NCBI GenBank assembly: GCA_028279725.1
Contig: JANQNE010000011.1
Coordinates: forward strand, 25,872 to 89,871
DNA from: Candidatus Nanoarchaeia archaeon
Lineage (GTDB): Archaea; Nanobdellota; Nanobdellia; Woesearchaeales; JANQNE01
DNA length: 64,000 bases
Direction of reading: 5' to 3'
The notes under the pieces were generated by a model. The model was not told where the DNA came from, did no database searches, and was given only the letters and a program-made list of their open reading frames with translations. How positions within the stretch are numbered: the stretch's first letter is position 1; every line of letters begins with the position of its first letter. Shown here in pieces: positions 14,312 to 59,936 of the stretch. A program made the position numbers and the translations under genes.

Positions 14312-14342
14312 CTTTTTAAATAGAGAGTTCTTGTTTTGTCCT

Positions 14343-18124: not shown

Positions 18125-19855
18125 ATGATAACCAAAGAAGCACACCAACATATGAAGGATATCGGTGTTATTGAAGGATTAAATCGTGATATTTCTCAAG
18201 AATATGAGGTAACTTCTTTTGATGAGGCCTTGCTTCCTCTGATAGACAAGAATGATGTTTTGGTTGTAGCAGGCGGTTTTTTTGGTGATGAAGGGAAGGG
18301 AAAGATAACAGATGCTGTTGCTAATCACTCAAAGATCAAACTGATAATGAGATCAAATTCAGGAGAAAATGCAGGCCATACAGTCTATCATGATGGAGTA
18401 AAATATGTTTTCCATGTAGTTCCTTCAGGAATATTAGTTCCAGGCAAGTTAAATCTTATCGGTTCTGAGTGTGTTGTGGATCCTGTAAATCTTATGGGGG
18501 AGCTTTCCCAGCTTACTGAAAGAAATATAGATTACTCTGAAAAACTTTTTATAGCAAATCCACATATTGTCGCTCCATATCATAAGCTGATGGATCTTAT
18601 CCAGACTGCTTCAAATTCCTCCACATTAAGAGGCATATCTCCTATACATGCTTCAAAGGCGAAGAAAAGAGGGTTGAGGCTTGATGACATATACATGCCG
18701 GAAGAACATCAGAAGAAGATCATTGAGAAAGATATGGGAGATTATATCGGATTGATGGAAGTATTGGGAAAAAATCAAGAACAACTGCTGAAGTTTTGTG
18801 AAGAAGTGAATTCTGATGATAATGTTGTCATTCCGGAGCATGTAGTTGGTTTTCTTAAAGCAGATGATAAAGTAAGATATATTGTTGATCTTTTCAGAAA
18901 GACTGTTGTAGAAAATAAGCTCTTTCCTGAAAGGACGAAGAATATGGATCTAGTTGACGATACTTTGGAGAAGGGAGATAAGATGCTTGTTGAAGCAGCA
19001 CAAAGTTTTTTTCTTTCAAATAAGATAAAGACTCATTTCAGATCTGCTACTTCAGCTGATACAAGCGCAAGCGGGACTATCTCTGCAGCTAATTATAATA
19101 TTGCCAAATACAATACAGCAGTCATAAATGTAATCAAATTTGTATCTTCAAGAGTTGGCAGAGGAGAGAATCCTGTCGGTTTTGTGCCGCAGACCTTCTT
19201 TTCAGATCAGGGGATAACCACGTTAAATGAACTGAAAGGTGTGTGTGAAGATTTTGATGAGATACAAAAGCAGTTTATGGATTCTGTTGGAGAGAACGGA
19301 ATCTTGGATCCTACAACCTACAAAGATAAGGATGGAAAAGAGTATCCTATAGTTGTTGCTATGGCTATCGCTTCTTCAAAACACTATGGGGAAAGAGGAG
19401 CTACTACTAAAAAACCAAGGATTACTGGATTTATAGATTGTGTTGCTCATCACCTTGTCAATAAGAAGCAAGGTCCATATCTTTCTATATCTGCTATGGA
19501 TAGAGGAGATGACCTTGATAAAGTGGGATTGGTTATCGCTTATGTTATCTATGTTCCAGAAGGGAAGAGTAATCCTGAGTCTGAAGGAAAAGAATATAAG
19601 ACAGGAGATTTGATAAAAACAGGAGATCCTATGCCTAATGAACAGGTCTTGAAGTATGCTATCCCTATAATAAAAGTTATGAATGGGTGGAAGGACAGCC
19701 CTATTGCTGTTGATAAAAGAAGTGTGGATGACCCATTACCTAAATCAGTCCAGGATTATATTGCTGCATTAGAGCATTTTACTGGAGCTGAAGTTATATC
19801 TATTGGGAATGGAGCTGACACAAAGAACCTGATATACTTGAAAAAGAAAGCTTAA
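18125..19855 (+). CDS. purA: Adenylosuccinate synthetase (unusually long, 576 aa)
   Basis: GDEGKGKITD P-loop-like PurA signature near the N-terminus; the remainder aligns loosely and suggests large insertions relative to ~430-aa (bacterial) or ~340-aa (archaeal) PurA. Confidence 0.7.
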   Translation: MITKEAHQHMKDIGVIEGLNRDISQEYEVTSFDEALLPLIDKNDVLVVAGGFFGDEGKGKITDAVANHSKIKLIMRSNSGENAGHTVYHDGVKYVFHVVPSGILVPGKLNLIGSECVVDPVNLMGELSQLTERNIDYSEKLFIANPHIVAPYHKLMDLIQTASNSSTLRGISPIHASKAKKRGLRLDDIYMPEEHQKKIIEKDMGDYIGLMEVLGKNQEQLLKFCEEVNSDDNVVIPEHVVGFLKADDKVRYIVDLFRKTVVENKLFPERTKNMDLVDDTLEKGDKMLVEAAQSFFLSNKIKTHFRSATSADTSASGTISAANYNIAKYNTAVINVIKFVSSRVGRGENPVGFVPQTFFSDQGITTLNELKGVCEDFDEIQKQFMDSVGENGILDPTTYKDKDGKEYPIVVAMAIASSKHYGERGATTKKPRITGFIDCVAHHLVNKKQGPYLSISAMDRGDDLDKVGLVIAYVIYVPEGKSNPESEGKEYKTGDLIKTGDPMPNEQVLKYAIPIIKVMNGWKDSPIAVDKRSVDDPLPKSVQDYIAALEHFTGAEVISIGNGADTKNLIYLKKKA

Positions 19856-21701: not shown

Positions 21702-22183
21702 AAATGGGAAAGAAAAAACTAGAATCTATGGTTAAGAGTAGTGTTAAGTATCTGATAGAAGGGGCAGTCTTGGCTGCGAAAGAAAGATATGACGGTGCGT
21801 TAGAACATAGGGCAGCTGAATATGCTGTTGAGAGAGAAGGAAAGCTGACAAAGGACCAATATGAATTCTTATTTCATTGCATACATTGGTTTCTATATTC
21901 AAGCCCTGGAGAATATGGACAAAAGAAGAGGCTTGATCGTACAGATGCAAGGAGAAGTGGTGATAAGCAGTATTGGAAATTGTTGAATCCACGTGAGTTC
22001 TTCAATAATGGCGATGGTCCTAGGAAGGATTTTGATAGGACAATGAACAGATTAGCTGAATGTGCGTATAGGCAGGAGAAAGACTGGTTTGACGGAAGAT
22101 ATGCCAGTTATATGGATAAAGGCGGAGAAATCAACAGAACAGAAAGAGTTAAATTGTTAAAATCACTCGATATCAAAGAGTAG
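21689..22183 (+). CDS. Hypothetical protein
   Basis: 164-aa ORF overlapping the guaA stop by 13 nt and convergently overlapping purM by 21 nt; no recognised motifs. Confidence 0.35.
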   Translation: MLGVKMGKKKLESMVKSSVKYLIEGAVLAAKERYDGALEHRAAEYAVEREGKLTKDQYEFLFHCIHWFLYSSPGEYGQKKRLDRTDARRSGDKQYWKLLNPREFFNNGDGPRKDFDRTMNRLAECAYRQEKDWFDGRYASYMDKGGEINRTERVKLLKSLDIKE

Positions 22184-23281
22184 ATCTTCTTTATCTTTTC
22201 CTTTACTTTTTATTTTTATTTTGTTTTCTTCGATGACTTTGCCTGCAATCTGGGCTTTTATGTTGAACTTTGCTGCTTCCTGGATAACTTTTTCTGGCTC
22301 TGGTGTTATTATTGCTAAGCCTTGGCCCATGTTCCATGTCCTGTATGCTTCTTTGTCTGCTATGTTTCCTAGTTCCTGGCAATATTGCATAGCTTTGCAT
22401 GGTTCGAAAAGATTGTCTAGTTCAGCTCCATAACCTGATGGTTTTAGGACTCTGCCAAGTTTTCCTGGCAATCCGCCTCCTGTGATATGAGAGACACCAT
22501 GGATCTTACAGCATCCTTCTGTCTTGAAACCACCATGCATATGAATAACAGCTTTTGAATATATTGTTGAAGGTATGAGGACTAAATTTCCTAATTTTTC
22601 TCCTTCAAATTCAAAATTGTGCCATTCTGGACCATGTTTTTGTTCAAAAACCTTTCTTGTAAGAGATAATCCGTTTGATCTGAAGCCTTTTTCTTCAAGA
22701 ACAACAACAGAATCTCCTAGCTGAACTTCTTTTCCTGTGAAAAGCTTGTTTTTGTTTGCAAACCATGCTATGCTGGAGCACCAATTGTACTTGAACTTTC
22801 CATAACCACCAACACCATCTCCAAGTTCAGCTAATTCTCCGTTGATTACTGCAACATTTGCTGCATCAGCAGCTTTTACATAGCCTTCTGCAAGTTGTTT
22901 TAGCTGTTCTATGTGTGATTCGTTTTCTTTTCCTAAAGAATTAACGTCAAGAACACTTCCGATAAGGACTGGTTCTGCTCCTCTTACTATTGCATCATCA
23001 CAGACCATTGCAAAAAGATCAAAGGCTATTGTCTTATGGTTGTTCATCCTCTGTGCAATCTCTACTTTTGTTCCGACTCCGTCAAAACCTATGCACATAA
23101 GGCTTCCTTCAGGAAGATTTCCGATGTTAATGGCTCTGACTCCTGAGAAATCATCAAATGGAACGATGATCTCTCCGATATTGCCTTTTCTGTTATCAAA
23201 GGTAAGCTTTGCAGCTTTGTACAATATCTTTGATGCATCATCTCCAAGTTCGATGTTAACTCCTGAGTCTTTATAGTCCAT
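22163..23281 (-). CDS. purM: Phosphoribosylformylglycinamidine cyclo-ligase (AIR synthetase)
   Basis: IGFDGVGTKVEIAQ (DGVGTK) and the PurM-N/PurM-C layout; 372 aa. Confidence 0.85.
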   Translation of the reverse strand: MDYKDSGVNIELGDDASKILYKAAKLTFDNRKGNIGEIIVPFDDFSGVRAINIGNLPEGSLMCIGFDGVGTKVEIAQRMNNHKTIAFDLFAMVCDDAIVRGAEPVLIGSVLDVNSLGKENESHIEQLKQLAEGYVKAADAANVAVINGELAELGDGVGGYGKFKYNWCSSIAWFANKNKLFTGKEVQLGDSVVVLEEKGFRSNGLSLTRKVFEQKHGPEWHNFEFEGEKLGNLVLIPSTIYSKAVIHMHGGFKTEGCCKIHGVSHITGGGLPGKLGRVLKPSGYGAELDNLFEPCKAMQYCQELGNIADKEAYRTWNMGQGLAIITPEPEKVIQEAAKFNIKAQIAGKVIEENKIKIKSKGKDKEDLLFDIE

Positions 23282-23282
23282 A

Positions 23283-24782
23283 TTAACCTCTGTCAGCTTT
23301 CTCCAGCTTTTCTATCTTTTCTTTGTTTTTCTTTTTTATCGCTTTCTGGATCTTCTCATTTGAGAGTCCTAAGATCTGTGCTGCATGTCTTGCTGCATTA
23401 GCAGGTCTTAAGATCAATGAGTTAGAGCTTCCTGGTGGATTCTCTAAGCAAGAAAAGCAATCATCTGCATCAGGAGGACAGCTGATCACTGGGTGAACGC
23501 TGTGGAATGATACAACTCCTGAAAGAGCATCTGTTCCTCCTGCAACAGAGATAAATACAACTGGTTCTTCAGACTGGTTGTATTTGTTTATGATCTCTTC
23601 ACATCTTCTTGGTTGTTTGTGTGCTGAGCAGATTCTTATGACTGATGCCAGTCCGTATTTGTTCAACTCTTCCTGGATCTTTTTCAGATGAGGCATGTCA
23701 CTGTCTGATCCTGCTATGATAACTACTAAGCCACCTTTGATGTATCCTTCTTTTCTTAGCTTTTGGATCATATCTGTGCTTACATCTGACTGAGGGAAAT
23801 TGAACTTATTTCCTGTCAGGCTTTCATATAAACTGATATATCTGTAAGCAACTTCTATTACATCTTTGTCTTCAAGTTCTGGCGGCTTTTCTGTTGATCC
23901 GTAAGCACCATATCCTTTTTCAACAAGAACATCTCTAACGAACTGTTTTGACAGCTCTTTTATCTTTAGCTGTGGTTTTTTCTTAAGAAGTTCTGTTACA
24001 TCTTTGTATCTTCCTGTATCCATCTCTTTCTTTATTCCTGTGTATTTGTTGTATTCTTCTATTGTACAGTATCTTGATGAATCTGGTGTGTTTGCTTCGT
24101 CAATCAGGTTGATCTTTCCTTTTTCGTCGATACCAAACTCATACTTTGTGTCAATGAAGATAAATCCTTTCTGTTCTGCCAGTTTTGATGCACGCTTAAA
24201 TAGTCTTATTGAGATATCTCTGAGCTGTGTTGCCAGTTTTTTTCCAAGCTTATCTGCCATGTATTCAAAGCTTACATTAACATCATGATCTCCATCTTCT
24301 GCTTTTGTAGCTGGAGTAAATAATGGTTCTCTAAGCTTTTGGTATCTTAGCAATGAATCTGAAAGCTTTATTCCGCAGAACTCTCTTTTTCCATCTTCGT
24401 AGTCTGCAGCCATGCTTCCCCAAACATATCCTCTTACAACGAATTCGAATGCAATCTTATTCATCTTTTTCTGGACAATAACATTTCCATGAGGGCTTCT
24501 TATGACAGCGTTTGGAACAATATCTGTTGTGTTGTCAAATGCCCATTGTGCGAAGAGGTTTAATGTTAATCCTTTGAAAGGGATCTGCCTGCTAAGTACA
24601 TGGTCAAAGCAAGATATCCTATCTGATGCCACCATCACTATAGGTTTTCCAACTTTTGGTGATGTAAAATGTACTTCTCTTACTTTTCCTGATTTATGTG
24701 TTCCAAGTTCTGGGATGTATCCTGAGAACAGGGTATTGTCTAAGTTTTCTTTGATTATTTTTTTGTATTTTTGTTCTTCCAT
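23283..24782 (-). CDS. Bifunctional SAICAR synthetase (PurC, long/ADE1-type) + PurE class II (AIR carboxylase) fusion, PAICS-like
   Basis: N-terminal half has SGKVREVH, TKAEDGDHDVNVS and FIDTKYEFG (PurC). C-terminal half has VVIIAGSDSDMPH and CSAHKQP (PurE; SAHK indicates class II). Confidence 0.8.
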   Translation of the reverse strand: MEEQKYKKIIKENLDNTLFSGYIPELGTHKSGKVREVHFTSPKVGKPIVMVASDRISCFDHVLSRQIPFKGLTLNLFAQWAFDNTTDIVPNAVIRSPHGNVIVQKKMNKIAFEFVVRGYVWGSMAADYEDGKREFCGIKLSDSLLRYQKLREPLFTPATKAEDGDHDVNVSFEYMADKLGKKLATQLRDISIRLFKRASKLAEQKGFIFIDTKYEFGIDEKGKINLIDEANTPDSSRYCTIEEYNKYTGIKKEMDTGRYKDVTELLKKKPQLKIKELSKQFVRDVLVEKGYGAYGSTEKPPELEDKDVIEVAYRYISLYESLTGNKFNFPQSDVSTDMIQKLRKEGYIKGGLVVIIAGSDSDMPHLKKIQEELNKYGLASVIRICSAHKQPRRCEEIINKYNQSEEPVVFISVAGGTDALSGVVSFHSVHPVISCPPDADDCFSCLENPPGSSNSLILRPANAARHAAQILGLSNEKIQKAIKKKNKEKIEKLEKADRG

Positions 24783-24806
24783 TTTTTCCTCCCCTATCCC
24801 TCTTTT

Positions 24807-25421
24807 TTATTTTTTGACTATAACTTTTCTTCCTTCAACCTTTATCTTTCCTTCTCCAAAAAGCTGTATAGCTTTAGGGTAAAGCTCTTTTTCTAATGTC
24901 TGGACCTTTTCTTTCAATGAATCTACTGTCTCGTCGTTCTCTATGTCTACTGTTCCCTGCATTATTATAGGTCCTGTGTCCATTCCTTCGTCAACAAAGT
25001 GGATTGTGCATCCGCTGACCTTACATCCATAGTTAAGGATGTCTTCATGTACTGACCTGTCCATTCCTGGGAATGAAGGCAGTAGTGAAGGATGAATGTT
25101 CATTATCCTGTCTTTATATTTGTTTGCAAACCATGGGCTAAAAAGACGCATATAGCCTACAAGGACTAAAAGTTCTACTTCTTCCTGGTCTAAGATCTCT
25201 GCAACTCTTTTGTCGTAGCTTTCTCTTGTGTCTTCATCTTTTTTGTACAATTCTATTCTTGTCTTGAATCCCTGGTTTTGTGCTCTTTCGATAGCATAGC
25301 ATTCTTTGTTTGCTAGGACAATCTTTAATTCTGCATCAAGCTCTTTGTTCTTTATAGCATCCATTATAGCCTGAAGATCTGTTCCGTTTGTTGATGCCAT
25401 TACAGCTATTTTTATCGTCAT
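24807..25421 (-). CDS. purN: Phosphoribosylglycinamide formyltransferase
   Basis: [13 protein letters not shown] and [13 protein letters not shown] (NxHPSLLPxF) motifs; 204 aa. Confidence 0.85.
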
Positions 25422-26287
25422 TTTAGATTATTTTGCATCTTGTATGCAGTTAATGTGTTTTCTAGTAATGATGCTATTGTCATAGGGCCAACTCCACCTG
25501 GAACAGGTGTTATGTGTGAGCATTTGCCTTTTACGTTTTCAAAGTCAACATCGCCTTCAAGATGATATCCTTTTTCTGAGTCATCATCAACTCTGTTAAC
25601 TCCTACATCAATTACTACTGCTCCTTCTTTTACCATATCTGCTGTTACTAGTTTTGGTCTTCCTACTGCTGCAACTAATATATCTGCTGTCTTGCAGATC
25701 TCTGCCATATTTTGTGTTCTTGAATGGCAGATGGTTACTGTTGCGTTTTTTTGGAGTAGTAATGTCGATACTGGTTTTCCTACGATATTGCTTCTTCCTA
25801 TCACAACAGCATGTTTTCCGCTTATGTCTGTTCCAGTTGATTCTATAAGTGTTATTATCCCTTTTGGTGTGCATGAGACAAGGCTATTGTTTCCTGTGAA
25901 TAGATTTCCCATATTTACAGGATGAAATCCATCAACATCTTTCTCTGGGATTATTGTGTTTATGACTTTAGTGTCTGAGATCTGTTTTGGAACAGGCATC
26001 TGGACTAAAATTCCATTGACTGTTTCGTCGTTGTTAAGCTTTTCTATGAGTTTTAGCAGCTCTTCTTCTGGAATGTCTTTATCTAATTCATATTTGAATG
26101 ACTGAATGCCTACTTCTCTGCATTTCACTTCTTTCATGTTGACATATACTTTTGAAGCTGGATTTTCCCCTACTAAAACAACTGCTAATCCTGGCTTTTT
26201 TTCCAGTTGTGAAACTTCTTCTTTGATCTTTTCTCTTATCTCAGCTGAGATCTTGTTTCCGTCTATCAATTCCATTTTATCTATCAC
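25418..26287 (-). CDS. folD: Bifunctional methylene-THF dehydrogenase / methenyl-THF cyclohydrolase
   Basis: [29 protein letters not shown] and [10 protein letters not shown] blocks typical of FolD; overlaps purN by 4 nt. Confidence 0.85.
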
Positions 26288-27445
26288 CTAAAAATGTGCA
26301 AAGCATCTTTCTGTAGTATAGACCATTGCCATATCATGATCATTTGCTGCTTCAACAACCTCTAGGTCTTTTACAGAACCTCCTGGCTGTATTATTGCAG
26401 TTATACCTTGATTTGCTATAAGGTCAACTGAATCTCTGAAAGGAAAGAATCCATCTGATGAGATGACTGCTCCTTTTAGGGGATTTTCTGACAGTTTTTC
26501 TTTTGATGCTATGACATTTAATGAATCATATTCAATATTTTCCCTATCCATTGCTTTTTGGTATGCTTTTAGGATAGCCTGCTCAACAGCTCCAACTCTT
26601 TCTTGCTGTCCTGAGCCTATTGATAGGGAAACACCATTCTTAACAATAACAACACCATTACTTCTTACACCTAGGTTGATGTACCATGATGTTAGCAGGT
26701 CTTGGAGTTCCTGTATTGAAGGCTCTCTTTTTACTGAAACTTCTTTTTCATCTGTGTTTATTGTCGGATGTGTTATAAGATCTGATGGATCTTTTATCTT
26801 GCATAAGTAAGGTTTTTGGATGATTAATCTTCCTGCACCCATTATTTTGACGTCGAAGAGTCCTGTTGTGTCATCTCCAGCAAATTTTGGAACTTTGTCT
26901 AGGTTTTCGAATGTGAGCAGTCTCATGTTTTTCTTTTCGCTCAGGATATCTTCTGCTTCTTTCTGGAATCCAGGAGCTGCAACAGCTTCAACATAGCTTG
27001 TCATTATCTCTTCTGCTGTTTCTTTGTCAACTTCTCTGTTGAAAACTACTACTGAGCCGAATGCACTTCTTGCATCAGCATCTCTTGCATTTTTGTAGAT
27101 GTCTTTCAATGAGTTGTCCTGATATTGAGTTGCAAACCCCGAAGGTATTATGTGTTTCATAACGCAAACTGAAGGATGATTGAAGAACTTCAGTATTTCC
27201 ATAGCTCTTATTACATCCATTACATTTGTTGCTGATAATCCACCTTTTCCTGATTTTAGAAGCTGAATATTTGTAAGGTCAGCTATTGTTGATCCTTTGA
27301 ACTTGTATTCTGCTCCTGGCTGATTTGGATTTTCTCCATATCTTAGATCCATCTCTTTGACTAATTCTAACGGCAGTTCATCCGGATAGTCTCCAGCATT
27401 TACTGTCTTGTACATATTTTTTAGGTCGCTTAAGTTTTCTCCCAT
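26288..27445 (-). CDS. purH: AICAR transformylase domain of PurH, encoded as a separate gene
   Basis: LRYGENPNQ and downstream AICARFT blocks; begins 1 nt after the stop of the IMPCH gene, with its own RBS (GAGGGA). Confidence 0.8.
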   Translation of the reverse strand: MGENLSDLKNMYKTVNAGDYPDELPLELVKEMDLRYGENPNQPGAEYKFKGSTIADLTNIQLLKSGKGGLSATNVMDVIRAMEILKFFNHPSVCVMKHIIPSGFATQYQDNSLKDIYKNARDADARSAFGSVVVFNREVDKETAEEIMTSYVEAVAAPGFQKEAEDILSEKKNMRLLTFENLDKVPKFAGDDTTGLFDVKIMGAGRLIIQKPYLCKIKDPSDLITHPTINTDEKEVSVKREPSIQELQDLLTSWYINLGVRSNGVVIVKNGVSLSIGSGQQERVGAVEQAILKAYQKAMDRENIEYDSLNVIASKEKLSENPLKGAVISSDGFFPFRDSVDLIANQGITAIIQPGGSVKDLEVVEAANDHDMAMVYTTERCFAHF

Positions 27446-27446
27446 T

Positions 27447-28169
27447 CTAATCCCTCTTTATTTCATAGCATTTCTCAAGATCTGCTATCTCTGTTTTTTG
27501 TATCAGCTTATTGACTGATGCCATATAATCTGTTATCATGCTTGATGCTTTTTTTGCCAAGTTAAGGCGAGTTGCAAGTGAGATCGCTCCGTTGTTTGTG
27601 TCTAGTTCTTCAATTAGTGTTTTGTATTCTGACGGATCTGTTATCAATGCAGTGCTTACTAATGCTTTTCTTGCATTATGACTCATGCTTGGCCCTCCTA
27701 CGTCTATATTTTGCCTTAGGATCTCAAAAGTTGAGTCAGGCTTTGCCATCATCTCATCCAATGGATAAAAGTTGACTATTAATGCATTGATGTAGTTGAT
27801 GTTATGTTCTTTCATGAATTCATCGTCTGATTCTGTATGATTGTGTGCTAAAAGTCCTGCATGTATAACTGGATGTAGTGATTTAACTAATCCTGTCTTC
27901 ATCTCAGGGTATTTTGTAACTTCTGAGACTTCTACAACATTAAGCCCTGCTTCTTTTACTATCTTGTATGTTCCTCCTGTTGATATGAACTGGACATCTG
28001 GGTTTTTTTCTGCTATAAAACCTAAAAGTCCGTTTTCTGGAATTCCTTCTATTATTGGTCCATCTTTTCTTTTGTTGGAAACTAATCCTTCTTTGTTTGT
28101 ACAGCTGACCAATACATGCTTTAGCTGTATAAGGTCATCAACTTTTTTTACAAATTCAATTTCAGCCAT
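27447..28169 (-). CDS. purH: IMP cyclohydrolase (MGS-like) domain of PurH, encoded as a separate gene
   Basis: ISTGGT, VSEVTKYPEMKTGLVKSLHPVIHAG and VNFYPL match the PurH N-domain; 240 aa. Confidence 0.8.
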   Translation of the reverse strand: MAEIEFVKKVDDLIQLKHVLVSCTNKEGLVSNKRKDGPIIEGIPENGLLGFIAEKNPDVQFISTGGTYKIVKEAGLNVVEVSEVTKYPEMKTGLVKSLHPVIHAGLLAHNHTESDDEFMKEHNINYINALIVNFYPLDEMMAKPDSTFEILRQNIDVGGPSMSHNARKALVSTALITDPSEYKTLIEELDTNNGAISLATRLNLAKKASSMITDYMASVNKLIQKTEIADLEKCYEIKRD

Positions 28170-28738
28170 TATTTACACCTTATCACTCTTTTTTCGGTAA
28201 TTATCATATCCATCGGGATGTCATAATCTTCTGTTGGTATATTTTTTGTTATCTGTTCTTCAAATGCAAGCCCTATTTTTAGGGAGTTTCTGTCTTTCAG
28301 GAATCTGTCGTAAAAACCTTTTCCGAATCCTATCCTTGCTCCGCTTTGGTCAAAAGCGATGCCTGGGACGAGGACGATGTCCAGGTTTTCTTTGTATTCC
28401 TCTTTTTTGATTGGTTCGAGTACTCCGAAGTTCCCTTCTTTTAGGTCATTGAAGTCAGATAATTTTGATATCTTTATGTTGTTTTCTTCGACAAATGGGA
28501 TGATTACTGTCTTTTGCTGCAGTTGTTCTTTGATTAATTCTATTGTGTTTACCTCACTTTTTAGTGAAAGGTAAGACATCACTATGTTTGCTTTTTTGAA
28601 CTCATCCAGATCTTTTAGATGTTGGATGATTGTCTTGCTTTTTTCTGAGATCTGTTCTTCCGGTATGTTATCTCTTATGGACCTTATGGTGTTTCTGATC
28701 TCTTGTTTGTTTATTCTGTTCATAGTGCGATTCTTCAC
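28169..28738 (-). CDS. 5-formyltetrahydrofolate cyclo-ligase (MTHFS)
   Basis: GARIGFGKGFYDRF (GxGxGyYDR) family signature; 189 aa; overlaps neighbours on both sides. Confidence 0.75.
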   Translation of the reverse strand: MKNRTMNRINKQEIRNTIRSIRDNIPEEQISEKSKTIIQHLKDLDEFKKANIVMSYLSLKSEVNTIELIKEQLQQKTVIIPFVEENNIKISKLSDFNDLKEGNFGVLEPIKKEEYKENLDIVLVPGIAFDQSGARIGFGKGFYDRFLKDRNSLKIGLAFEEQITKNIPTEDYDIPMDMIITEKRVIRCK

Positions 28739-31404
28739 TTTTGCCTATCAAGCTCTTTTTTTGCAATATCTTTTCTAAAAAACATGCCGTCGAAGTTTAT
28801 GTCATTTATTTTTGTGTATGCTGTATCGACGGCATCTTTAAGGGTTGATCCTAATGTGATTACATTTAATACTCTTCCTCCATTTGTGAGGATCTTTCCG
28901 TTATCTTTCTTTGTTCCAGCGTGAATCACCTGTGCTCCACTTATGTTATCTAAACCTTTTATCTCTTTTCCCTTTTCATATGAACCAGGATAACCTCCTG
29001 ATGCTAGTACTATGCTTACGCAGTGTTTTTCAGACCAGTCTAGTTTCATAGCTCCTAGTTTCTTGTCTATTACTGCGTTCATTACGTCAAGTATATCATT
29101 GTTTAATCTTGGAAGGATAACCTGTGTTTCCGGATCTCCAAATCTGCAGTTGAATTCTAAGATCTTTAGGCCGTCTTTTGTTTTCATAAGTCCGACGTAG
29201 AGGACTCCTTTGTATTCTATGCCTTCTGCTTTTGTTCCAGCTATGAATGGCTTAATTATCTTTTCTTCCATCTCTTTTTCAAGTCCGTCTAATATTGGTG
29301 CTGGTGAGTAAGCTCCCATCCCTCCTGTATTAGGGCCTTTGTCTCCTTCATAGATTGGTTTGTGATCCTGTGAATATACCATTGGCTTGAATGTTTCTGA
29401 GTCTACGAAGACTAAGTAGGACCCTTCTTCACCTACAAGACATTCTTCTACAACTATTGATGAAGATGCATCTCCGAATTTGTTTGCTTTTAGGCATTCT
29501 TCTGCAAACTTTACTGCTTCTTCTACTGTGTTTGCGACAAGAACTCCTTTTCCAGCAGCTAGTCCGTCTGCTTTTACGACAATTGGTGCTCCCTGCTTTT
29601 CGATGTATGCTTTTGCTTTTTCAAAATCAGTGAATTCATCAAATTCAACTGTTGGAAGATTATATTTTTTCATGAATCTTCTTGCAAATGCTTTTGATCC
29701 TTCAAACTGTGATGCTTTTTTGTTAGGGCCGAAGACTCTTATCCCTGCTTTTTCAAGTTCGTCAGCTGCTCCGTTAACTAGCGGAGCTTCTGGACCTATG
29801 ATTGCAAGATCTATCTTCTTTTCTTTTGCAAACTTGACTAAAGCTTCATTATCATTTTGGTCGATATCATGACAGCAAGCTACCTGGCCAATACCTGGAT
29901 TTCCCGGGACTGCGTATAGTTTGTTTAATCTGTCAGATTCTGTGACTTTTAATGCAATAGCATGCTCTCTTCCGCCTGAACCAACTATCATTACGTTAAG
30001 TTTGGTGTCTAATGTTGTCTGCTCTTCTGTTCTCTGGCAACCAAGGCATTGCTGCTGTGATTCTGATACTGGTTCTGGGTATTCTCCTGTTAAACATGCC
30101 ATACATACATCCCTCCTTGTAGCATTCTTGATATTATCAACTGTTGCATATACTAAATTATCTGCTTCAAGATATTCTCTTATCTGTTCTATTGATTTAT
30201 CTGAAGCTATAAGCTCTTTTTTTGTCGCCATGTCTATCCCATAGAAGCATGGGAATTTTATAGGAGGACAAGCAGAAACAAATGTAACTTTTCTAACTCC
30301 TCCATCTTTTAATGTTCTTACTATCCTTTTTGATGTTGTTCCCCTTACAATGCTGTCATCAACTACAGCAACACTCTTGTTTTCAAGTATACTTATTACA
30401 GGCCTTAGTTTTCTTCTTACTGAGTCATGCCTTGTCTTTTGTGATGACATTATGAATGTTCTTTGTATATATTTATCTTTGATCAGACCTTCCCTATATT
30501 TTACAGCAAGATCTTCACTTAATTTTATAGCAGCTGTCCTTCCTGAATCTGGAACTGGGACTACAACATCGATGTCTTTTTGGTCCATCTGCTCGCTCAT
30601 CAGTTTTCCAAGAGCTAATCTTGTCTTGTATACTGATCTGTTCTCTATCATGCTGTTCGGGCTTGCAAAATATATCCATTCAAACATACAATGAGCTTTT
30701 TTCTCCTGTTTTAGGATCTTGCTTTCTATAACCAAGTCTTTTGAGATAAAAACAGCTTCTCCTGGCTCTATATCTCTGACATAATCATGATCAATAACCT
30801 GAAATGCTACAGTTTCTGAAGCAAATATGTATGAATCTCCTCTCTTTCCGAGAACTAAAGGCCTTATGCCTCTTGGATCTCTTATCGCGAATATACCTTT
30901 GTCTGCTATCATTCCAACAATTGAGTAAGCTCCTCTTACCTTATCCATGAAGTGCTTTGCAGCTGCAAAGAAATCTCCATGCTGTTCGTAATGCTCTGCG
31001 AATATTCTTAGAAGAACTTCACCGTCAACAGAGGTTTCAAGATGTTTTCCTTTTTTTTGGAATTCTTCTTTTAGGTCGAAGTAGTTTATTGTGTTTCCGT
31101 TCTGAGCCATAGCAACTTTTGGGTTGATCTTTGTTGTAAGAGGTTGTGCGTCGCACAACATTCCTTTTCCCTGTGTTGCATATCTTGTGTGGCCGATGCC
31201 CATCTTCCCTTGTAATAGGTTTGCGTCTCTTGCCTTGAATACTCTGTGAACAGCATCCATCTCTTTTTTTGTGAAGAATTCGTCTTTTACGTTTGTTACT
31301 ATGCCGCATGCATCCTGGCCTCTATGCTGCAATGACATCAAGCTAGTTACTGCATCCTCAAAAACTTCATCATCTTTTGAAACAATACCAATAATTCCGC
31401 ACAT
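28735..31404 (-). CDS. Fusion of amidophosphoribosyltransferase (PurF, Fe-S type) and phosphoribosylamine--glycine ligase (PurD)
   Basis: N-terminus MCGIIGIV (Ntn Cys1), PRTase VVDDSIVRGTTS, Fe-S ligand regions CMFEWIYFASP and CMACLTGEYP. After a short linker comes LNVMIVGSGGREHAIALKV (PurD start) and the ATP-grasp C-terminal half. 889 aa. Confidence 0.85.
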   Translation of the reverse strand: MCGIIGIVSKDDEVFEDAVTSLMSLQHRGQDACGIVTNVKDEFFTKKEMDAVHRVFKARDANLLQGKMGIGHTRYATQGKGMLCDAQPLTTKINPKVAMAQNGNTINYFDLKEEFQKKGKHLETSVDGEVLLRIFAEHYEQHGDFFAAAKHFMDKVRGAYSIVGMIADKGIFAIRDPRGIRPLVLGKRGDSYIFASETVAFQVIDHDYVRDIEPGEAVFISKDLVIESKILKQEKKAHCMFEWIYFASPNSMIENRSVYKTRLALGKLMSEQMDQKDIDVVVPVPDSGRTAAIKLSEDLAVKYREGLIKDKYIQRTFIMSSQKTRHDSVRRKLRPVISILENKSVAVVDDSIVRGTTSKRIVRTLKDGGVRKVTFVSACPPIKFPCFYGIDMATKKELIASDKSIEQIREYLEADNLVYATVDNIKNATRRDVCMACLTGEYPEPVSESQQQCLGCQRTEEQTTLDTKLNVMIVGSGGREHAIALKVTESDRLNKLYAVPGNPGIGQVACCHDIDQNDNEALVKFAKEKKIDLAIIGPEAPLVNGAADELEKAGIRVFGPNKKASQFEGSKAFARRFMKKYNLPTVEFDEFTDFEKAKAYIEKQGAPIVVKADGLAAGKGVLVANTVEEAVKFAEECLKANKFGDASSSIVVEECLVGEEGSYLVFVDSETFKPMVYSQDHKPIYEGDKGPNTGGMGAYSPAPILDGLEKEMEEKIIKPFIAGTKAEGIEYKGVLYVGLMKTKDGLKILEFNCRFGDPETQVILPRLNNDILDVMNAVIDKKLGAMKLDWSEKHCVSIVLASGGYPGSYEKGKEIKGLDNISGAQVIHAGTKKDNGKILTNGGRVLNVITLGSTLKDAVDTAYTKINDINFDGMFFRKDIAKKELDRQK

Positions 31405-31406
31405 TT

Positions 31407-32231
31407 TTATCTATCCTTAAAATAGTCAACAGCATTCTGGAAAATCCTGAAGTTTGAGCTAATTAAATCAGGGATCTCTTTGTTTTCTCTTTTAGCGATC
31501 TCTTTTTTCAGATGGAATTCCGGCTCGCTGATTGAGTATATTGCTCTTTCTGGATGAGGCATCATTCCCATTAGCCTTCCAGTCTTGTCGCAGATAGCTG
31601 CTATATCATTTAAAGCTCCATTAGGGTTGATAGGGTAAACATTTTCTGCATCATCTCCTGCTTCATTGCAGTACGTGAAAACTATCTGGTTGTTCTTTTT
31701 TAATTCTTCAAGTGTGTTTTTATCGCATGTGAATCTTCCTTCTCCATGAGCTATAGGGAGATGTGTCTGTTCTATTCCTTTTGTGAATATACAATTAGAA
31801 TTGTTGTTTTTTATGTTTACCCATAAGCATTCATATCTGTTGCTTGTGTTTGATTCTAATGAGCTGATTCTTTTTCCGTAGTCTCCATCTGTAGCGAATA
31901 ATCCTAAATGGGTCATGACCTGGAATCCGTTGCAGACTCCGAGTATCAATTTTCCTGAGTTTATGAACTCTAAAAGATCTTCCCAAAGGTTGTTTTTTAT
32001 CTTGTTTGCAAAAGCATTTCCTGAACCTGTGTCATCTCCATACGAGAATCCTCCTGGAAACATAATTATATTGTAGTCAGACATCTTTTTCTTTTTTGAG
32101 ATAAGGTCGTTTATGTGGACAATTTCGCATTCAGCTCCTGCTTTTTCAAAAGCATGAGCACTTTCTTTCTCGCAGTTGATCCCATATCCTGACATAATCA
32201 ATACTTTTGGTATCATATTAATAGTCCTCAA
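31407..32231 (-). CDS. purQ: FGAM synthase glutaminase subunit
   Basis: Class I GATase catalytic GVCNGFQ and HGEGRF; 274 aa; overlaps the purL stop. Confidence 0.85.
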   Translation of the reverse strand: MRTINMIPKVLIMSGYGINCEKESAHAFEKAGAECEIVHINDLISKKKKMSDYNIIMFPGGFSYGDDTGSGNAFANKIKNNLWEDLLEFINSGKLILGVCNGFQVMTHLGLFATDGDYGKRISSLESNTSNRYECLWVNIKNNNSNCIFTKGIEQTHLPIAHGEGRFTCDKNTLEELKKNNQIVFTYCNEAGDDAENVYPINPNGALNDIAAICDKTGRLMGMMPHPERAIYSISEPEFHLKKEIAKRENKEIPDLISSNFRIFQNAVDYFKDR

Positions 32232-35214
32232 ACCTTTTTTTGTATATTTTTTCTAATTTTTCAATGTCTGTCTTGATTACTTGTTCTTCTTTGTTGTTTA
32301 TTATGAACTCATTGTCTTCTTTTACTGTTCCTATCTTTGCTATGTCGAAGTCGCTCATTGCTTTTACAAATTCATCCTGGTCTTTAGGGTTGATCGTTAC
32401 GATGAATCTGGACTGTGATTCTGAATAGAATATCTTTTCTATTGGCAGGTTATCGTTTGGTGCTTTGCTTAAGTCTGTTTCCGCTCCAAGCTGTCCTGCG
32501 ATTGCCATCTTTGCTAATGTGATCAGTAGTCCGCCTTGATTGACTGGAGCACATGCACTGAACATTCCTTTTTTGTTTAACTGGAACATTGTTTCGTAAA
32601 GTTTTCTTGCTTTTTGTGCATCTACTTTTGGTGACTTTGCTCCGAACTTATCGAATGCTCTATAGAACTCGCTTCCACCACATTCGTCTTTCGTCATTCC
32701 TATGGTGTATATCAGATCTCCCGGAAGCTTGAAGTCCATCGTTATTGTATCTTTTGCATTGTCGATTATGCTTATGCTTGAGATCATCAATGTTGGAAGT
32801 ACTGAAATCTTTATTGAGTTATCTTTTTCGTCAAATCCTTTGAAATCGTTGAACATGCTGTCTTTTCCTGAGATAAATGGTGTTTTGTAGATGGTTGCAT
32901 AATCATAGCATGCTTGTGCTGCGTCTTTTAGCTGGCCCATACGTTCTGGCTCGTTTGAACTGCACCAGCAGAAGTTGTCCATGAGTGCAAGATGGTCTAT
33001 GTTTCCGCCGACAGCAACACAGTTTCTTATTGAAGTGTCTATAGCACATGCTGCCATATCATAGCAGTTTATCTCGCTTAGTCTTGGATAAAGGCATTGT
33101 GACATAACAGCTGCTTTATTGCTGCTGAACAAAGGCTTTACAACTGAAGCTGCTCCGTTGACTCTGCCTTTTCCCTGTAATGGTTTTATGACTGAGTTAT
33201 TCTGAACTTCATGATCATACTGTTTTGATATAAATTCAAAGCTGCAGTTGTTGTGATTTCCCAGGATCTTTTCGAACAGTGCTTTTTGGTTGTCTATTGT
33301 TATTTTTGGCTCTTCTGTCCTGTAAGGATAAGGTTTTGTGATAAGTTTTCTTTTTGGAAGTCCGTCATGTAAGAATTCCATGTCTAAGTTGAATATTTCT
33401 TTTCCGTTGAAATTCACTATAGCTTTTTTTGTGTCGTTGAAATTTCCAATTACTGTTGATTCAACTCCTCTGCTTTCCATAAGGTCCATGAATTCTTTTA
33501 GCTTGTTGTCTGGAACTGATAATGTCATACGTTCCTGTGATTCTGAAATCCATGTTTCCCAAGGCGGAAGTCCTGGATATTTTAGAGGAACTTTTTCTAA
33601 GTCTACTATGAAACCACCACATTCTCTTGCCATCTCTGCAACTGAACAGGATAATCCTCCTGCTCCATTGTCTGTTATGCTATTGTAAAGTTCTTTATCT
33701 CTTGCTTCTTTTACAATTGCATCCGAGAGTTTCTTTTGAGTGATCGGATCTCCTATCTGAACAGCTGTTGCTGGTGAGCCTTCATCCATCTCTTCTGATG
33801 AGAATGTTGCTCCGTGAATACCATCTTTTCCAACTCTTCCGCCGATCATGACAATGTTGTCTCCTGGCTGAGCCTGTTTGTCCTGGCTTGGATTTCCGTT
33901 AGGAAGTTTTCTTGGTAAAAGTCCTACAGTTCCTACGAATATGAGAGGTTTTCCCTTGTAGCAATCGTCGAAGTATACAAATCCTGTTGGTGTTGGAATA
34001 CCTGAGCAGTTTCCTCCTACATTTACTCCATGTATTACTCCATCCATGATCTTTCTTGGTGTTAAAGCTGGGTTTGTCTTGTTCTTTCCTCTGTAAATGA
34101 ATGTCTTGTCTTCTGGTCTTCCTAAGCAGAAGCCGTATTTGTTAACTATTGGAAGTGCGCCCATACCGAAGCCGATAGTGTCTCTGTTAACTCCTACAAT
34201 TCCAGTTATAGCTCCTCCAAATGGATCTAATGCTGAAGGACTATTATGTGTTTCAGCTTTGTCTGTGATCATCCAGTCGTCATTGAATATTATTCCTCCT
34301 GAATTGTCTTTGAATACTGATAAGCAGAAATCTTTATCTCCTAAGTCTTCTCTTACTTTTATTGTCGCTGCTTTGATGAACTTTTTGTATATTCCTTCTT
34401 TTATGTCATCTATCTCTCCTGCAAATAAAGTGTGTTTGCAGTGTTCTGACCATGTTTGTGCGATTGATTCCAGCTCAATATCAGTTGCTTTTCTTCCTTC
34501 TTTTTTGTAATAAGCCTGTATTGCGTGTAAGTAGTCTAAGTCTAAAGCTAAAGGGCCTCTTCTTGTGTTTGTTACAGGATCAGGAATTCCTTTTTTTCCA
34601 AGTTCTGTAAGAATTTCATCACTGACATTCAGATCAATTGCAATTACGTTTTGTTCTTCTTTTATGTTTACTTTTGGAACAATATAATCCATGCCGTTGT
34701 CTTCAGTGTATTGTTCTGCTGATTTGATGTGGAAACGTTCTATTAAAGTGTTGATTAGTTCTTTTGCAATTATTTCTATGTCTTCTTTCTTTAGGTTGTC
34801 TGATTTTATTAAGATCAGTTTAGAAGTGAATACTTTGTTTCTTCCAATGTTGATCTTGAATAGGTCGTTTATGATTTCTGTAGTTGTGTTTGCTACATTG
34901 TCTGTAACTCCTGGCAAGAATCCCAGTTCTAATGCCCAGCTAAACTCTTTTTTTGATGGTGAGTTGATCCTTGGAGTTTCTACGATAGGATTGTGTAATG
35001 CGTTAGCTATTGCTGTTATTTGTTCTGCTGAGAAATCATACTGGATAGTGTATACTTTGCTTACTTCAATAGAGGTTTCGAAGCCCAGCGAGAACAGCTT
35101 TTTCTCTAATATTTTGGCTTCAGAGCCCTTCTCCTTGGAATCTATAGAAATCCTAAATATCTGTCCATTTTCTTGCATGATCAACCCCCTATAGTTAGCT
35201 GAAAAATGACTCAT
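32218..35214 (-). CDS. purL: FGAM synthase II (PurL) with ~215-aa N-terminal PurS-like extension
   Basis: SEHCKH motif at ~aa 250 marks the canonical smPurL start, followed by PurM-like repeats. The upstream segment LGFLPGVTDNVANTTTEIINDL resembles the PurS core; no separate purS in the operon. 998 aa. Confidence 0.8.
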   Translation of the reverse strand: MSHFSANYRGLIMQENGQIFRISIDSKEKGSEAKILEKKLFSLGFETSIEVSKVYTIQYDFSAEQITAIANALHNPIVETPRINSPSKKEFSWALELGFLPGVTDNVANTTTEIINDLFKINIGRNKVFTSKLILIKSDNLKKEDIEIIAKELINTLIERFHIKSAEQYTEDNGMDYIVPKVNIKEEQNVIAIDLNVSDEILTELGKKGIPDPVTNTRRGPLALDLDYLHAIQAYYKKEGRKATDIELESIAQTWSEHCKHTLFAGEIDDIKEGIYKKFIKAATIKVREDLGDKDFCLSVFKDNSGGIIFNDDWMITDKAETHNSPSALDPFGGAITGIVGVNRDTIGFGMGALPIVNKYGFCLGRPEDKTFIYRGKNKTNPALTPRKIMDGVIHGVNVGGNCSGIPTPTGFVYFDDCYKGKPLIFVGTVGLLPRKLPNGNPSQDKQAQPGDNIVMIGGRVGKDGIHGATFSSEEMDEGSPATAVQIGDPITQKKLSDAIVKEARDKELYNSITDNGAGGLSCSVAEMARECGGFIVDLEKVPLKYPGLPPWETWISESQERMTLSVPDNKLKEFMDLMESRGVESTVIGNFNDTKKAIVNFNGKEIFNLDMEFLHDGLPKRKLITKPYPYRTEEPKITIDNQKALFEKILGNHNNCSFEFISKQYDHEVQNNSVIKPLQGKGRVNGAASVVKPLFSSNKAAVMSQCLYPRLSEINCYDMAACAIDTSIRNCVAVGGNIDHLALMDNFCWCSSNEPERMGQLKDAAQACYDYATIYKTPFISGKDSMFNDFKGFDEKDNSIKISVLPTLMISSISIIDNAKDTITMDFKLPGDLIYTIGMTKDECGGSEFYRAFDKFGAKSPKVDAQKARKLYETMFQLNKKGMFSACAPVNQGGLLITLAKMAIAGQLGAETDLSKAPNDNLPIEKIFYSESQSRFIVTINPKDQDEFVKAMSDFDIAKIGTVKEDNEFIINNKEEQVIKTDIEKLEKIYKKRFEDY

Positions 35215-35269: not shown

Positions 35270-35704
35270 TTACCCTCTAAGTGAAGGATGTAATGGGTAA
35301 GAAGGTGTTATGTATGTGTCTCCTCTTGATTCTACTTTTATCAATGTGTTATCAGCTACCCTAAAATCTAACGGGTCTTTGATTGCATTATCCCTGGCTT
35401 CGAATTTTCCAAGATAACATTCTTGAACTGCTTGTTTTAAGTGCGGTTCACAAGCAAAGATTTCAGCATAAGGTGTTGCTTCCATGATTGCCTTTGCAAC
35501 ATCAAGACTTGAGCTTCCTTCTTTTACAATGTTTGCCAGATCAACCATATCATAGAGCTTAATTGTTCCTGCTGGTTCTTTTTCACACTTCTTACATTCT
35601 CCATAAGGAAGATGCATAGTCTCGGTCAACCTATTTCTATCCATCGCTTTTCTAAGTGGAATGGATTTTTCCAAACCTTTTATGAATTCTCCTAAATCTG
35701 ACAT
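35270..35704 (-). CDS. Hypothetical protein within the purine operon
   Basis: 144-aa ORF between purB and purL; CKKCEKE pair; no family assigned. Confidence 0.4.
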   Translation of the reverse strand: MSDLGEFIKGLEKSIPLRKAMDRNRLTETMHLPYGECKKCEKEPAGTIKLYDMVDLANIVKEGSSSLDVAKAIMEATPYAEIFACEPHLKQAVQECYLGKFEARDNAIKDPLDFRVADNTLIKVESRGDTYITPSYPLHPSLRG

Positions 35705-35787: not shown

Positions 35788-37227
35788 CTAAACATTAATT
35801 GATGTGTTTGATTTTCCGACCAATTCTTTGTATTTTTCCAGAACTGGTTTGACTTCTTTCTGGATGAATTCTTCTGTCTGTTCTTTTGCTGCTCCTGTGA
35901 ACCTTACTGGGTTGTCTAATAGTGAGTTTAGGTAGTTTTCATCTACTGGTATTGACTGGTCTTCTGCTAATCTTTTGAATAAGTCATTCGGTTTTCCTTC
36001 TAGTTTTACTGATTTTGCTGCATCTACTGAATGTTTCTTTATTATTTCGTGCATCTCTTGTCTGTCATGTCCTTGTTTTGCCAATTCCATCAGTATAACT
36101 TCTGTTGACATGAACGGCAGTTCTGCATCAAGATGTTTTTTGATCTGAGCTGGATAGACAACCATGCCGTCTGTTATGTTTTGATATAGTTTTAAGATTG
36201 CGTTTGCTAGAAGGAAAGACTGAGGTATACTGATCCTTCTTATGGATGAATCATCTAGTGTTCTTTCAAACCACTGGTTAGCGTGAATATGTGAGAAATC
36301 TATTTGAAGATTGATGAGTTTTCTTGCCAATGCAGTCATACGTTCAGAACGCATTGGGTTCCTTTTGTATGCCATAGCTGAAGATCCTGTCTGTGATTTT
36401 GCAAATGGCTCTTCCATTATCTTAAGATTTGACATAAGTCTCATGTCAACTGCGAATTTATGCGCTGATTCTGCGATTCCTGACAGAATTTTTGCAACTA
36501 TAGTGTCGAATTTTCTTGTGTAAGTCTGTCCTGTAGTTGGATATGATTCTTCAAAACCTAATTTTTTGCTTACTAAGCTGTCTAATTGCTTAACTTTTTC
36601 ATAATTGTCGTTGAAAAGTTCTGTGTATGATGCCTGAGTTCCTACTGTTCCTTTTGCTCCTCTTGCTTTTAATTCTATCTGTTCTAATTGTTTTAGGTCT
36701 AGTAAAAGATCTTGAATGTAAAGTGTGATTCTTTTTCCTATGGTTGTCGGCTGTGCTGGCTGGTAATGTGTGTATCCTAGTGTTGCTAATGATTTGTTTT
36801 CTTCAGCAAATTTGGATAAGTTGTTTATTGTGTTTATTAATCCTGCTTTTATGATCTTCAGTGCTTCTCTTATTTGGATTAGATCTGTGTTGCAGCAGAC
36901 GAACTGAGAAGTTGCTCCTAAATGGATTATTCCTTTTGCTTTTGGGCAGTGTGTTCCGTATTCAAACACATGAGCCATGACGTCGTGTCTGATTTCTTTT
37001 TCTTTTTCTTTTGCGATGTCATAGTTGATTGTGTTCTGAGCAGCTTTTAGCTCTTCGATCATCTCTGGAGTGATCTGGGAGAGTCCTAGTTCCATCTGAG
37101 ATTCAGCTAAAGCTATCCAGCACTTTCTCCATGTTGAGAACTTGAAATTATCTGAGAATATCTGCTGCATCTCTTTGTCAGTATATCTTCCTACTAACGG
37201 ATCCTGGTAAACTTCGTGATTGCTCAT
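35788..37227 (-). CDS. purB: Adenylosuccinate lyase
   Basis: Fumarate-lyase signature GSSAMAYKRNPMRSE and the PurB-specific C-terminal domain; 479 aa. Confidence 0.85.
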   Translation of the reverse strand: MSNHEVYQDPLVGRYTDKEMQQIFSDNFKFSTWRKCWIALAESQMELGLSQITPEMIEELKAAQNTINYDIAKEKEKEIRHDVMAHVFEYGTHCPKAKGIIHLGATSQFVCCNTDLIQIREALKIIKAGLINTINNLSKFAEENKSLATLGYTHYQPAQPTTIGKRITLYIQDLLLDLKQLEQIELKARGAKGTVGTQASYTELFNDNYEKVKQLDSLVSKKLGFEESYPTTGQTYTRKFDTIVAKILSGIAESAHKFAVDMRLMSNLKIMEEPFAKSQTGSSAMAYKRNPMRSERMTALARKLINLQIDFSHIHANQWFERTLDDSSIRRISIPQSFLLANAILKLYQNITDGMVVYPAQIKKHLDAELPFMSTEVILMELAKQGHDRQEMHEIIKKHSVDAAKSVKLEGKPNDLFKRLAEDQSIPVDENYLNSLLDNPVRFTGAAKEQTEEFIQKEVKPVLEKYKELVGKSNTSINV

Positions 37228-59834: not shown

Positions 59835-59936
59835 GGGCCTATAGTCTAATGGATAGAACAACCGGCTTCGGTAAGTGGGGTCAAAAGCTTCGCTTGTGGG
59901 TACCGGTTAGTGGGGGTTCGAATCCTCCTAGGCCCA
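59835..59936 (+). tRNA. tRNA-Arg (anticodon TCG) with a 30-nt intron at the canonical 37/38 position
   Basis: Acceptor GGGCCTA/TAGGCCC, T-arm GGGGG-TTCGAAT-CCTCC, anticodon stem ACCGG/CCGGT, loop C-T-TCG-G with U33 and G37. A 30-nt insert TAAGTGGGGTCAAAAGCTTCGCTTGTGGGT lies between G37 and A38. CCA is not encoded. Confidence 0.8.

Follow-up and report, generated by a model that had tools for sequence, protein, structure and literature searches.

Can a single archaeal polypeptide contain the enzymes for both opening steps of purine synthesis, and what would joining them achieve? The question is raised by a 64-kb stretch of contig JANQNE010000011.1 from a Candidatus Nanoarchaeia archaeon (64,000 nucleotides, hereafter the window), in which one open reading frame (ORF), here called purFD, joins amidophosphoribosyltransferase (PurF) to glycinamide ribonucleotide (GAR) synthetase (PurD). 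A preliminary description, made from the sequence letters, had reported a single 889-aa ORF joining the two, and this holds: the frame is unbroken from ATG to stop, with 0 internal stops in the ORF list of the window, and each half matches its own equivalog model. The internal stop or assembly chimera between the domains that had been named as a possible flaw was looked for and not found, and fused homologues lie on independent contigs. We thus confirm that in purFD a complete Fe-S-type PurF and a complete PurD are naturally fused in frame. From sequence comparisons we further consider it rather probable that this one chain performs steps 1 and 2 of the pathway, an estimate that covers our best explanation of the locus as a whole. 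The elements of the fused gene on which the argument draws are as follows.

28735-31404, minus strand: purFD, PurF fused to PurD (amidophosphoribosyltransferase-GAR synthetase), 889 aa, with its stop codon at 28735-28737
30076-31404, minus strand: PurF part, residues 1-443, with N-terminal nucleophile (Ntn) glutaminase and phosphoribosyltransferase domains (TIGR01134, structure alignments)
31399-31401, minus strand: nucleophile Cys2 (Cys1 once Met is removed), no propeptide (conserved MCG start)
30331-30366, minus strand: phosphoribosyl pyrophosphate (PRPP)-binding loop VVDDSIVRGTTS, residues 347-358 (conservation and PurF alignments)
30076-30105, minus strand: C-x-x-C...YP motif with C434 and C437 (predicted Fe-S ligand positions together with C239 and C386)
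30001-30075, minus strand: junction, residues 444-468, the native C-terminal tail of PurF (tail comparison, helix in the AlphaFold2 (AF2) model)
28738-30000, minus strand: PurD part, residues 469-889, with GARS_N, GARS_A (ATP-grasp) and GARS_C (TIGR00877, alignments, fold)
29959-29982, minus strand: GSGGREHA loop, N-terminal in PurD, residues 475-482 (conservation)
29128-29145, minus strand: RFGDPE signature (Prosite PS00184), residues 754-759 (all six residues invariant)

The strings quoted in the preliminary description are all found in the translation (MCGIIG at the N terminus, CMACLTGEYP at residues 434-443 and QQQCLGCQRTEEQ at 450-462), and a public protein, P0001, encoded on a 240-kb contig, is 100% identical to the window protein. 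The Pfam domains follow one another in the order GATase_6/7, Pribosyltran, GARS_N, GARS_A and GARS_C. An AF2 monomer model built on an alignment of 32 fused sequences has a mean predicted local distance difference test (pLDDT) score of 88.7 and a predicted template modelling (pTM) score of 0.58, with pLDDT falling to 62-72 at the junction. No chain among the solved structures of the PDB spans PurF and PurD, the best query-normalised template modelling (TM) score being 0.49.

Is each half complete? For PurF, claimed from the outset to be a complete enzyme of the Fe-S type, the answer is yes. Residues 2-443 cover positions 1-432 of the 432 in the NCBIfam purF model TIGR01134, with 440.4 bits against a cut-off of 350, and this half aligns end to end with the solved enzymes of Arabidopsis thaliana (6lbp), Escherichia coli (1ecb) and Bacillus subtilis (1ao0); in the fold comparison, the modelled half superposes on solved PurF with TM scores of 0.85-0.88. 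Conserved residues were counted across an alignment of 32 fused proteins. The MCG start is present in 30 of them and the remaining two are truncated at the N terminus. Because the ATG of purFD lies 2 nt downstream of the purQ stop, the Cys falls at residue 2, giving the M-C-G start that an Ntn amidotransferase requires. In the PRPP loop D349, D350, S351, I352, V353, R354 and T357 are invariant, and residues 348-358 (VDDSIVRGTTS) are the same in pairwise alignments with E. coli and A. thaliana PurF. The glutaminase residues R74, Y75, N102, G103 and D127 are likewise invariant and align to E. coli PurF, in which we take the corresponding residues to be R73, Y74, N101, G102 and D127. Finally, none of the 32 sequences deviates at C239, C386, C434 or C437, which match Cys residues of the Fe-S-type A. 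thaliana ASE2 (6lbp); they are the predicted [4Fe-4S] ligand positions, which marks the protein as a member of the Fe-S subclass of PurF, the B. subtilis and plant type.

The carboxy-terminal half proves to be the complete GAR synthetase that had been proposed, with all three GARS Pfam domains and a full-length match to the NCBIfam purD model TIGR00877 (residues 469-885 on model positions 1-424 of 425; 540.8 bits, cut-off 288). It aligns to the solved PurD structures of Geobacillus kaustophilus (2yrw, 471 bits), Aquifex, B. subtilis and E. coli, and the modelled half superposes on 2yw2 with a TM score of 0.95 and a root-mean-square deviation of 1.7 Å. In the GSGGREHA loop G475, G477, R479 and E480 are invariant, and at least 90% of the fused proteins share G478 and H481; the RFGDPE signature conforms to the R[LF]GDPE motif defined for PurD (PMC3261824).

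How the halves are joined is the point at which the preliminary description needs correcting. What it had called a Cys-containing linker of about 25 aa is no added segment: it is the tail of PurF itself, meeting residue 1 of PurD directly. Stand-alone archaeal PurFs extend 18-29 aa past the C-x-x-C...YP motif with the same SEEQ..L..R..ER pattern, and stand-alone PurDs have six residues (M-K-V-L-V-V) ahead of GxGGRE; the window protein has 31 aa from YP to GxGGRE, that is, the tail plus the PurD N terminus and essentially no extra residues. An inserted, dedicated linker was therefore rejected. In the AF2 model residues 448-466 form a single helix leading into the first PurD strand, residues 469-475. 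The length is narrowly kept in the core clade of fused proteins described below (mostly 30-31 aa) and shorter in independent fusions (P0121 has about 8 aa there, P0171 about 5), and 11 of 36 fused proteins retain a Met at the ancestral PurD start. A metal site built from the junction Cys residues was considered and rejected, since these are not conserved: of 32 sequences, 9 carry C453, 6 carry C456 and 3 carry both. At the DNA level the junction is ordinary coding sequence, free of Ns, homopolymer runs and repeats.

How widespread is this architecture? When 5.8 billion proteins were searched, about 33 fused, full-length homologues were retrieved, 89% to 40% identical to the window protein, from NCBI, JGI, ENA and Logan assemblies, some of them on several contigs (three for P0009, eight for P0028). 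Those with an organism name belong to 'Candidatus Woesearchaeota archaeon', and in NCBI and JGI they are annotated solely as 'phosphoribosylamine--glycine ligase'. One homologue, P0023, is 63% identical and lies on a contig of 57% GC, compared with 37% in the window. The gene order around it is that of the window (purL, purQ, purFD, the 5-formyl-tetrahydrofolate (THF) cyclo-ligase gene MTHFS, split purH, folD, purN, purC-purE, purM), with the difference that purB follows purM there and precedes purL in the window.

Rarity was gauged with HMMER on 1.84 billion representatives clustered at 50% identity, among which 7,718 proteins matched at E <= 1e-30. As both halves add to the score, fused proteins are expected among the top scores, and five of the 150 best-scoring of the 7,718 span both halves (P0027, P0033, P0121, P0122 and P0171), a count that covers scores above about 370 bits, any more divergent fusion with a lower score falling outside it. 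P0027 represents the Woesearchaeota-type clade and P0122 has a cluster mate, P0269. P0171, a protein of 1188 aa from a 122-kb contig of a JGI metagenome, carries a C-terminal Formyl_trans_N domain in addition, and is by its predicted domains a PurF-PurD-PurN triple fusion of steps 1 to 3. The view that PurF-PurD is not a standard architecture is thus upheld by five clusters among the 150 best of 1.84 billion representatives, as well as by the lack of a PDB chain that covers both halves and of a description in the literature searched.

Where did the fusion come from? Among 80 related loci of GTDB representative genomes no fused ORF was found; matches that span both halves are adjacent, separate genes. 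In many archaeal loci purD comes directly after purF: in L001 and the Bathyarchaeota loci L015 and L025 the pair shares a frame and a single stop codon divides it, and in Iainarchaeum L012 and L018, an archaeal single amplified genome (SAG), the two genes overlap. The origin of purFD is most likely the loss of a stop codon between such tightly packed neighbours, as judged from these arrangements. PurF comes first in every fusion found, in keeping with the order of the separate genes (purF, then purD) as well as with the need of PurF for a free N-terminal Cys. A reverse arrangement, unfused, was seen in one SAG labelled Elusimicrobiota (L024, 9968-12904), where purD directly precedes purF, in frame with it and one stop codon away.

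Bootstrapped neighbour-joining trees (100 replicates) were made from samples of top hits for each half separately. The PurD halves of the 27 core fused proteins group together in 100 of 100 replicates, from which we conclude that the fusion has been retained through deep divergence; this core clade keeps it down to about 57% identity. That all fused proteins share one origin is rejected, as a clade uniting them has 0/100 support in the PurF half and the PurD half alike, and the PurF halves of P0032, P0033, P0121, P0269 and P0171 each cluster with different unfused PurFs. The trees indicate that the fusion arose at least four times: in the core clade, in P0032, in the group of P0033, P0121 and P0269, and in P0171. 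Strict monophyly of the core-clade PurF halves was not obtained, five unfused PurFs nesting inside by neighbour joining. The two of these five that were checked are true stand-alone purF genes from Woesearchaeota-type genomes with no purD nearby; secondary fission, replacement or limited resolution of the method are possible explanations for the nested sequences. Lone purF genes stand at 6001-7470 in L084/L085 and at 6001-7638 in L086, which are of Woesearchaeota type (one a 978-kb chromosome), and purine genes are absent within 6 kb either side of them.

The gene does not stand by itself. It lies in a purine operon that, by family assignment, encodes every step to inosine monophosphate (IMP), with the following neighbours.

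35788-37227, minus strand: purB for adenylosuccinate lyase, opening the cluster (family match)
35270-35704, minus strand: 144-aa ORF beside purL, no family match in the profile search
32218-35214, minus strand: purL, 998 aa, extended at the N terminus by about 235 aa (family models)
31407-32231, minus strand: purQ, glutaminase subunit of formylglycinamidine ribonucleotide synthase, immediately upstream of purFD (GATase_5, 277 bits)
28169-28738, minus strand: MTHFS, 5-formyl-THF cyclo-ligase, with a 4-nt overlap between its start and the purFD stop
27447-28169, minus strand: split purH, IMP cyclohydrolase/methylglyoxal-synthase-like part, 240 aa (family match)
26288-27445, minus strand: split purH, aminoimidazole carboxamide ribonucleotide formyltransferase part, 385 aa (family match)
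25418-26287, minus strand: folD, inside the purine operon
22163-26287, minus strand: block of folD, purN, purC-purE and purM, in the same order in locus L081
23283-24782, minus strand: purC-purE fusion, 499 aa (SAICAR_synt at residues 30-267, AIRC at 353-489)

The purL and purQ genes overlap. The extension of PurL may be a fused PurS-like module; a faint PurS match is seen in the PurL of the P0033 locus. In purH, 1 nt separates the first stop from the second start, and because the split is kept in L081 and L082 it is real and not a frameshift. A gene of L081 also has the purC-purE architecture. The one-carbon supply genes for 5-formyl-THF cyclo-ligase and FolD are encoded together with the two formyltransferase steps, and the P0033 locus holds glyA in addition.

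What, then, would the fusion do? In the explanation we favour, the PurF part would convert glutamine and PRPP into phosphoribosylamine (PRA) by means of its N-terminal Cys nucleophile, as an enzyme of the [4Fe-4S] type, and the PurD part of the same chain would turn PRA, glycine and ATP into GAR. PurF would be bound to come first in the chain, since its catalytic Cys requires that the amino terminus be free. With the PurF tail helix continuing into the first β-strand of PurD and a spacer of essentially nil, each PurF site would have a PurD within a few nanometres, at 1:1, so that PRA could be caught before it hydrolyses or diffuses away. Efficient capture of PRA, through proximity or directed channelling, would be the likeliest benefit, and channelling as such is plausible. 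PRA has a half-life of seconds (PMC7668255), and two later papers relate that the kinetics of Rudolph and Stubbe in 1995 suggested its direct transfer from PurF to PurD and that several methods detected no stable PurF:PurD complex (PMC10912719, PMC3261824); a docking model of the pair, proposed by Wang et al. in 1998, is summarised in the first (PMC10912719).

Several observations weigh against a benefit of this kind. The AF2 monomer model, with the pTM and junction scores given above, leaves the interface between PurF and PurD undefined. Most organisms manage without a PurF-PurD fusion, and in the species studied PurF is oligomeric and PurD monomeric. Related Woesearchaeota have a stand-alone purF. 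The junction is as long as the PurF tail and the PurD N terminus simply set end to end, so its length does not show adaptation. Faster decay of PRA in a thermophile, considered as a driver, is rejected because the host looks mesophilic (IVYWREL gives about 34 °C on 17.7 k residues of the window, a rough proxy). Last, both the lineage and the operon tend towards gene fusion in general, as in purC-purE here and ispD/F in Woesearchaeota subgroup J (PMC8421398), and purFD could thus have arisen almost neutrally, through genes that are compact and overlap.

This last thought leads to the alternative that survives best, in which both activities are real and the fusion is a near-neutral outcome of genome compaction, through loss of a stop codon between abutting or overlapping genes, that brings co-translation and a fixed 1:1 stoichiometry and no kinetic gain in the transfer of PRA. 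Genes of the operon abut or overlap, as at the purFD stop and the MTHFS start and at purL-purQ; purC-purE and possibly the long purL are further fusions within it; and the simple joining of native termini, the interface that AF2 does not place with confidence and the unfused purF of sister lineages all fit. Set against this, the same pair was fused at least four times independently, and once extended to PurN; the core clade has kept both the fusion and a narrow junction length to about 57% identity; and the pair that was fused is exactly the one for which channelling of an unstable intermediate had been proposed on kinetic grounds. We regard a purely neutral fusion as a serious possibility that is nevertheless on the unlikely side.

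Similarly tentative is a bolder form of channelling. PurF has an internal ammonia channel, and were PurD fixed on the PurF oligomer, that channel might be prolonged as a protected path for PRA; the glutaminase, phosphoribosyltransferase and GAR synthetase sites of one chain would then pass on NH3 and PRA without release, and the repeated origins of one N-to-C order, the PurF-PurD-PurN version included, would reflect selection for this transfer. If this were true, purFD would show in fixed form the transient PurF:PurD complex, undetected since 1995. Our favoured explanation, capture of PRA by a bifunctional chain, allows for proximity as well as for directed transfer.

A third reading would make one half catalytically dead or regulatory and the protein monofunctional, as its database name implies, since NCBI and JGI name PurD alone. 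That name stems from naming by the single best model, however, and all catalytic and ligand positions checked are invariant in both halves, each of which scores above its equivalog cut-off. A second purF or purD is absent from the 64-kb window, and from the operon within it, which supplies every remaining step, so both activities of purFD would be needed; we consider a monofunctional protein very improbable. The weakest reading, that adjacent purF and purD were merged by a lost stop, a frameshift error or a chimeric contig, might seem open given that the window is from a metagenome-type assembly and that one base error could mimic a fusion where, as in other archaea, the two genes lie in frame one stop apart, but it is scarcely credible and is rejected, since some 33 different fused proteins, 40-89% identical, recur on independent contigs (several on more than one) from varied assemblies and pipelines, the operon order is kept in L081 despite a very different GC content, and the junction is alignable, conserved in length and unremarkable in its DNA.

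Elsewhere in the window, guaB, purA and guaA lie on the plus strand and converge on the purine operon. The purA gene (18125-19855, plus strand, 576 aa) is unusually long; its matches to models of adenylosuccinate synthase are fragmentary and fall short of the cut-offs, a pattern suggestive of large insertions. Archaeal features of the window are a class I LysRS, an archaeal-type ProRS, an archaeal Dph6 domain and a probable intron-bearing tRNA; this last gene (59835-59936, plus strand, 102 nt) scores 51.6 bits with Rfam and is missed by ARAGORN, and it probably contains an intron, fitting an archaeal host. Among the archaea, the named homologues of purFD point to Woesearchaeota (DPANN) as the probable lineage of the host. 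The Dph6 domain, a diphthine--ammonia ligase (TIGR03679, residues 473-690, scoring 274.6 bits where the cut-off is 197.3), belongs to a 697-aa ORF (14331-16424, plus strand) in which an AsnB-like glutamine amidotransferase and asparagine-synthase module (residues 5-437) is fused to it. As Dph6 uses ammonia, the glutamine-hydrolysing module may supply it. No Pfam match was found for a 1100-aa ORF (41910-45212, plus strand) or for ORFs of 300-470 aa at 766-1881, 54504-55877, 56925-58325 and 60508-61404.

How does purFD compare with what is known? Its enzymes, chemistry and folds are those of PurF and PurD as stand-alone proteins in E. coli, B. subtilis and Aquifex aeolicus, and it shares the Fe-S type with the PurFs of B. 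subtilis and A. thaliana. The stand-alone enzymes are separate chains between which no stable complex was detected (PMC10912719), whereas in purFD they are covalently joined. PurD is part of a multi-enzyme chain in fungal Ade5,7 (PurD-PurM) and metazoan GART (PurD-PurM-PurN) too (PMC8449271). These extend PurD at its C terminus, by steps 5 and 3 and never by PurF; purFD extends it at the N terminus by step 1, and is not of the GART or Ade5,7 type, for the ORF ends past GARS_C, with purM and purN encoded separately. According to the survey of Chua and Fraser, as summarised in PMC8449271, the PurD of prokaryotes nearly always stands alone, the PurC-PurD of Francisella being a rare exception. That protein is likewise a prokaryotic PurD fusion, but unlike purFD it pairs PurD with SAICAR synthetase, an enzyme of a non-consecutive step that shares no unstable intermediate with it. 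Consecutive steps are fused in PurC-PurE proteins of the PAICS type, as they are in purFD; there the enzymes are others and the fusion is familiar from eukaryotes, whose PAICS has the same domain order as the purC-purE of this operon. The triple fusion P0171 has PurF and PurD in the same order as the window protein and adds GAR formyltransferase, step 3, yet it is of independent origin, roughly 29-38% identical and joined by a junction of about 5 residues.

No report of a natural PurF-PurD fusion was found in the open-access literature searched, and an earlier mention elsewhere is possible; there is no mention of one in a curated 2011 survey of how archaea make purines, in a review of the pathway from 2024, in the paper that relays the Chua and Fraser survey of fusions or in a comparative study of Woesearchaeota. 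The last of these describes near-complete purine pathways in subgroups D and J and the fused ispD/F of subgroup J, with no mention of fused purF/purD (PMC8421398). The architecture is thus rare and apparently undescribed, made of two well-known enzymes, and its sequences are public but under-annotated.

A natural fused PurF-PurD, available in several independent versions, makes the hand-off of PRA directly testable, and the geometry of that hand-off could be approached through a covalent fusion that is almost free of a spacer. The protein is also a possible design template for engineered purine pathways. For the archaea themselves, naming the fused proteins as PurD alone makes purF seem absent from their genomes, an annotation gap that bears on how we judge whether DPANN archaea make purines. 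Here, a complete and highly fused purine operon is found in a lineage usually considered to depend on its host for nucleotides.

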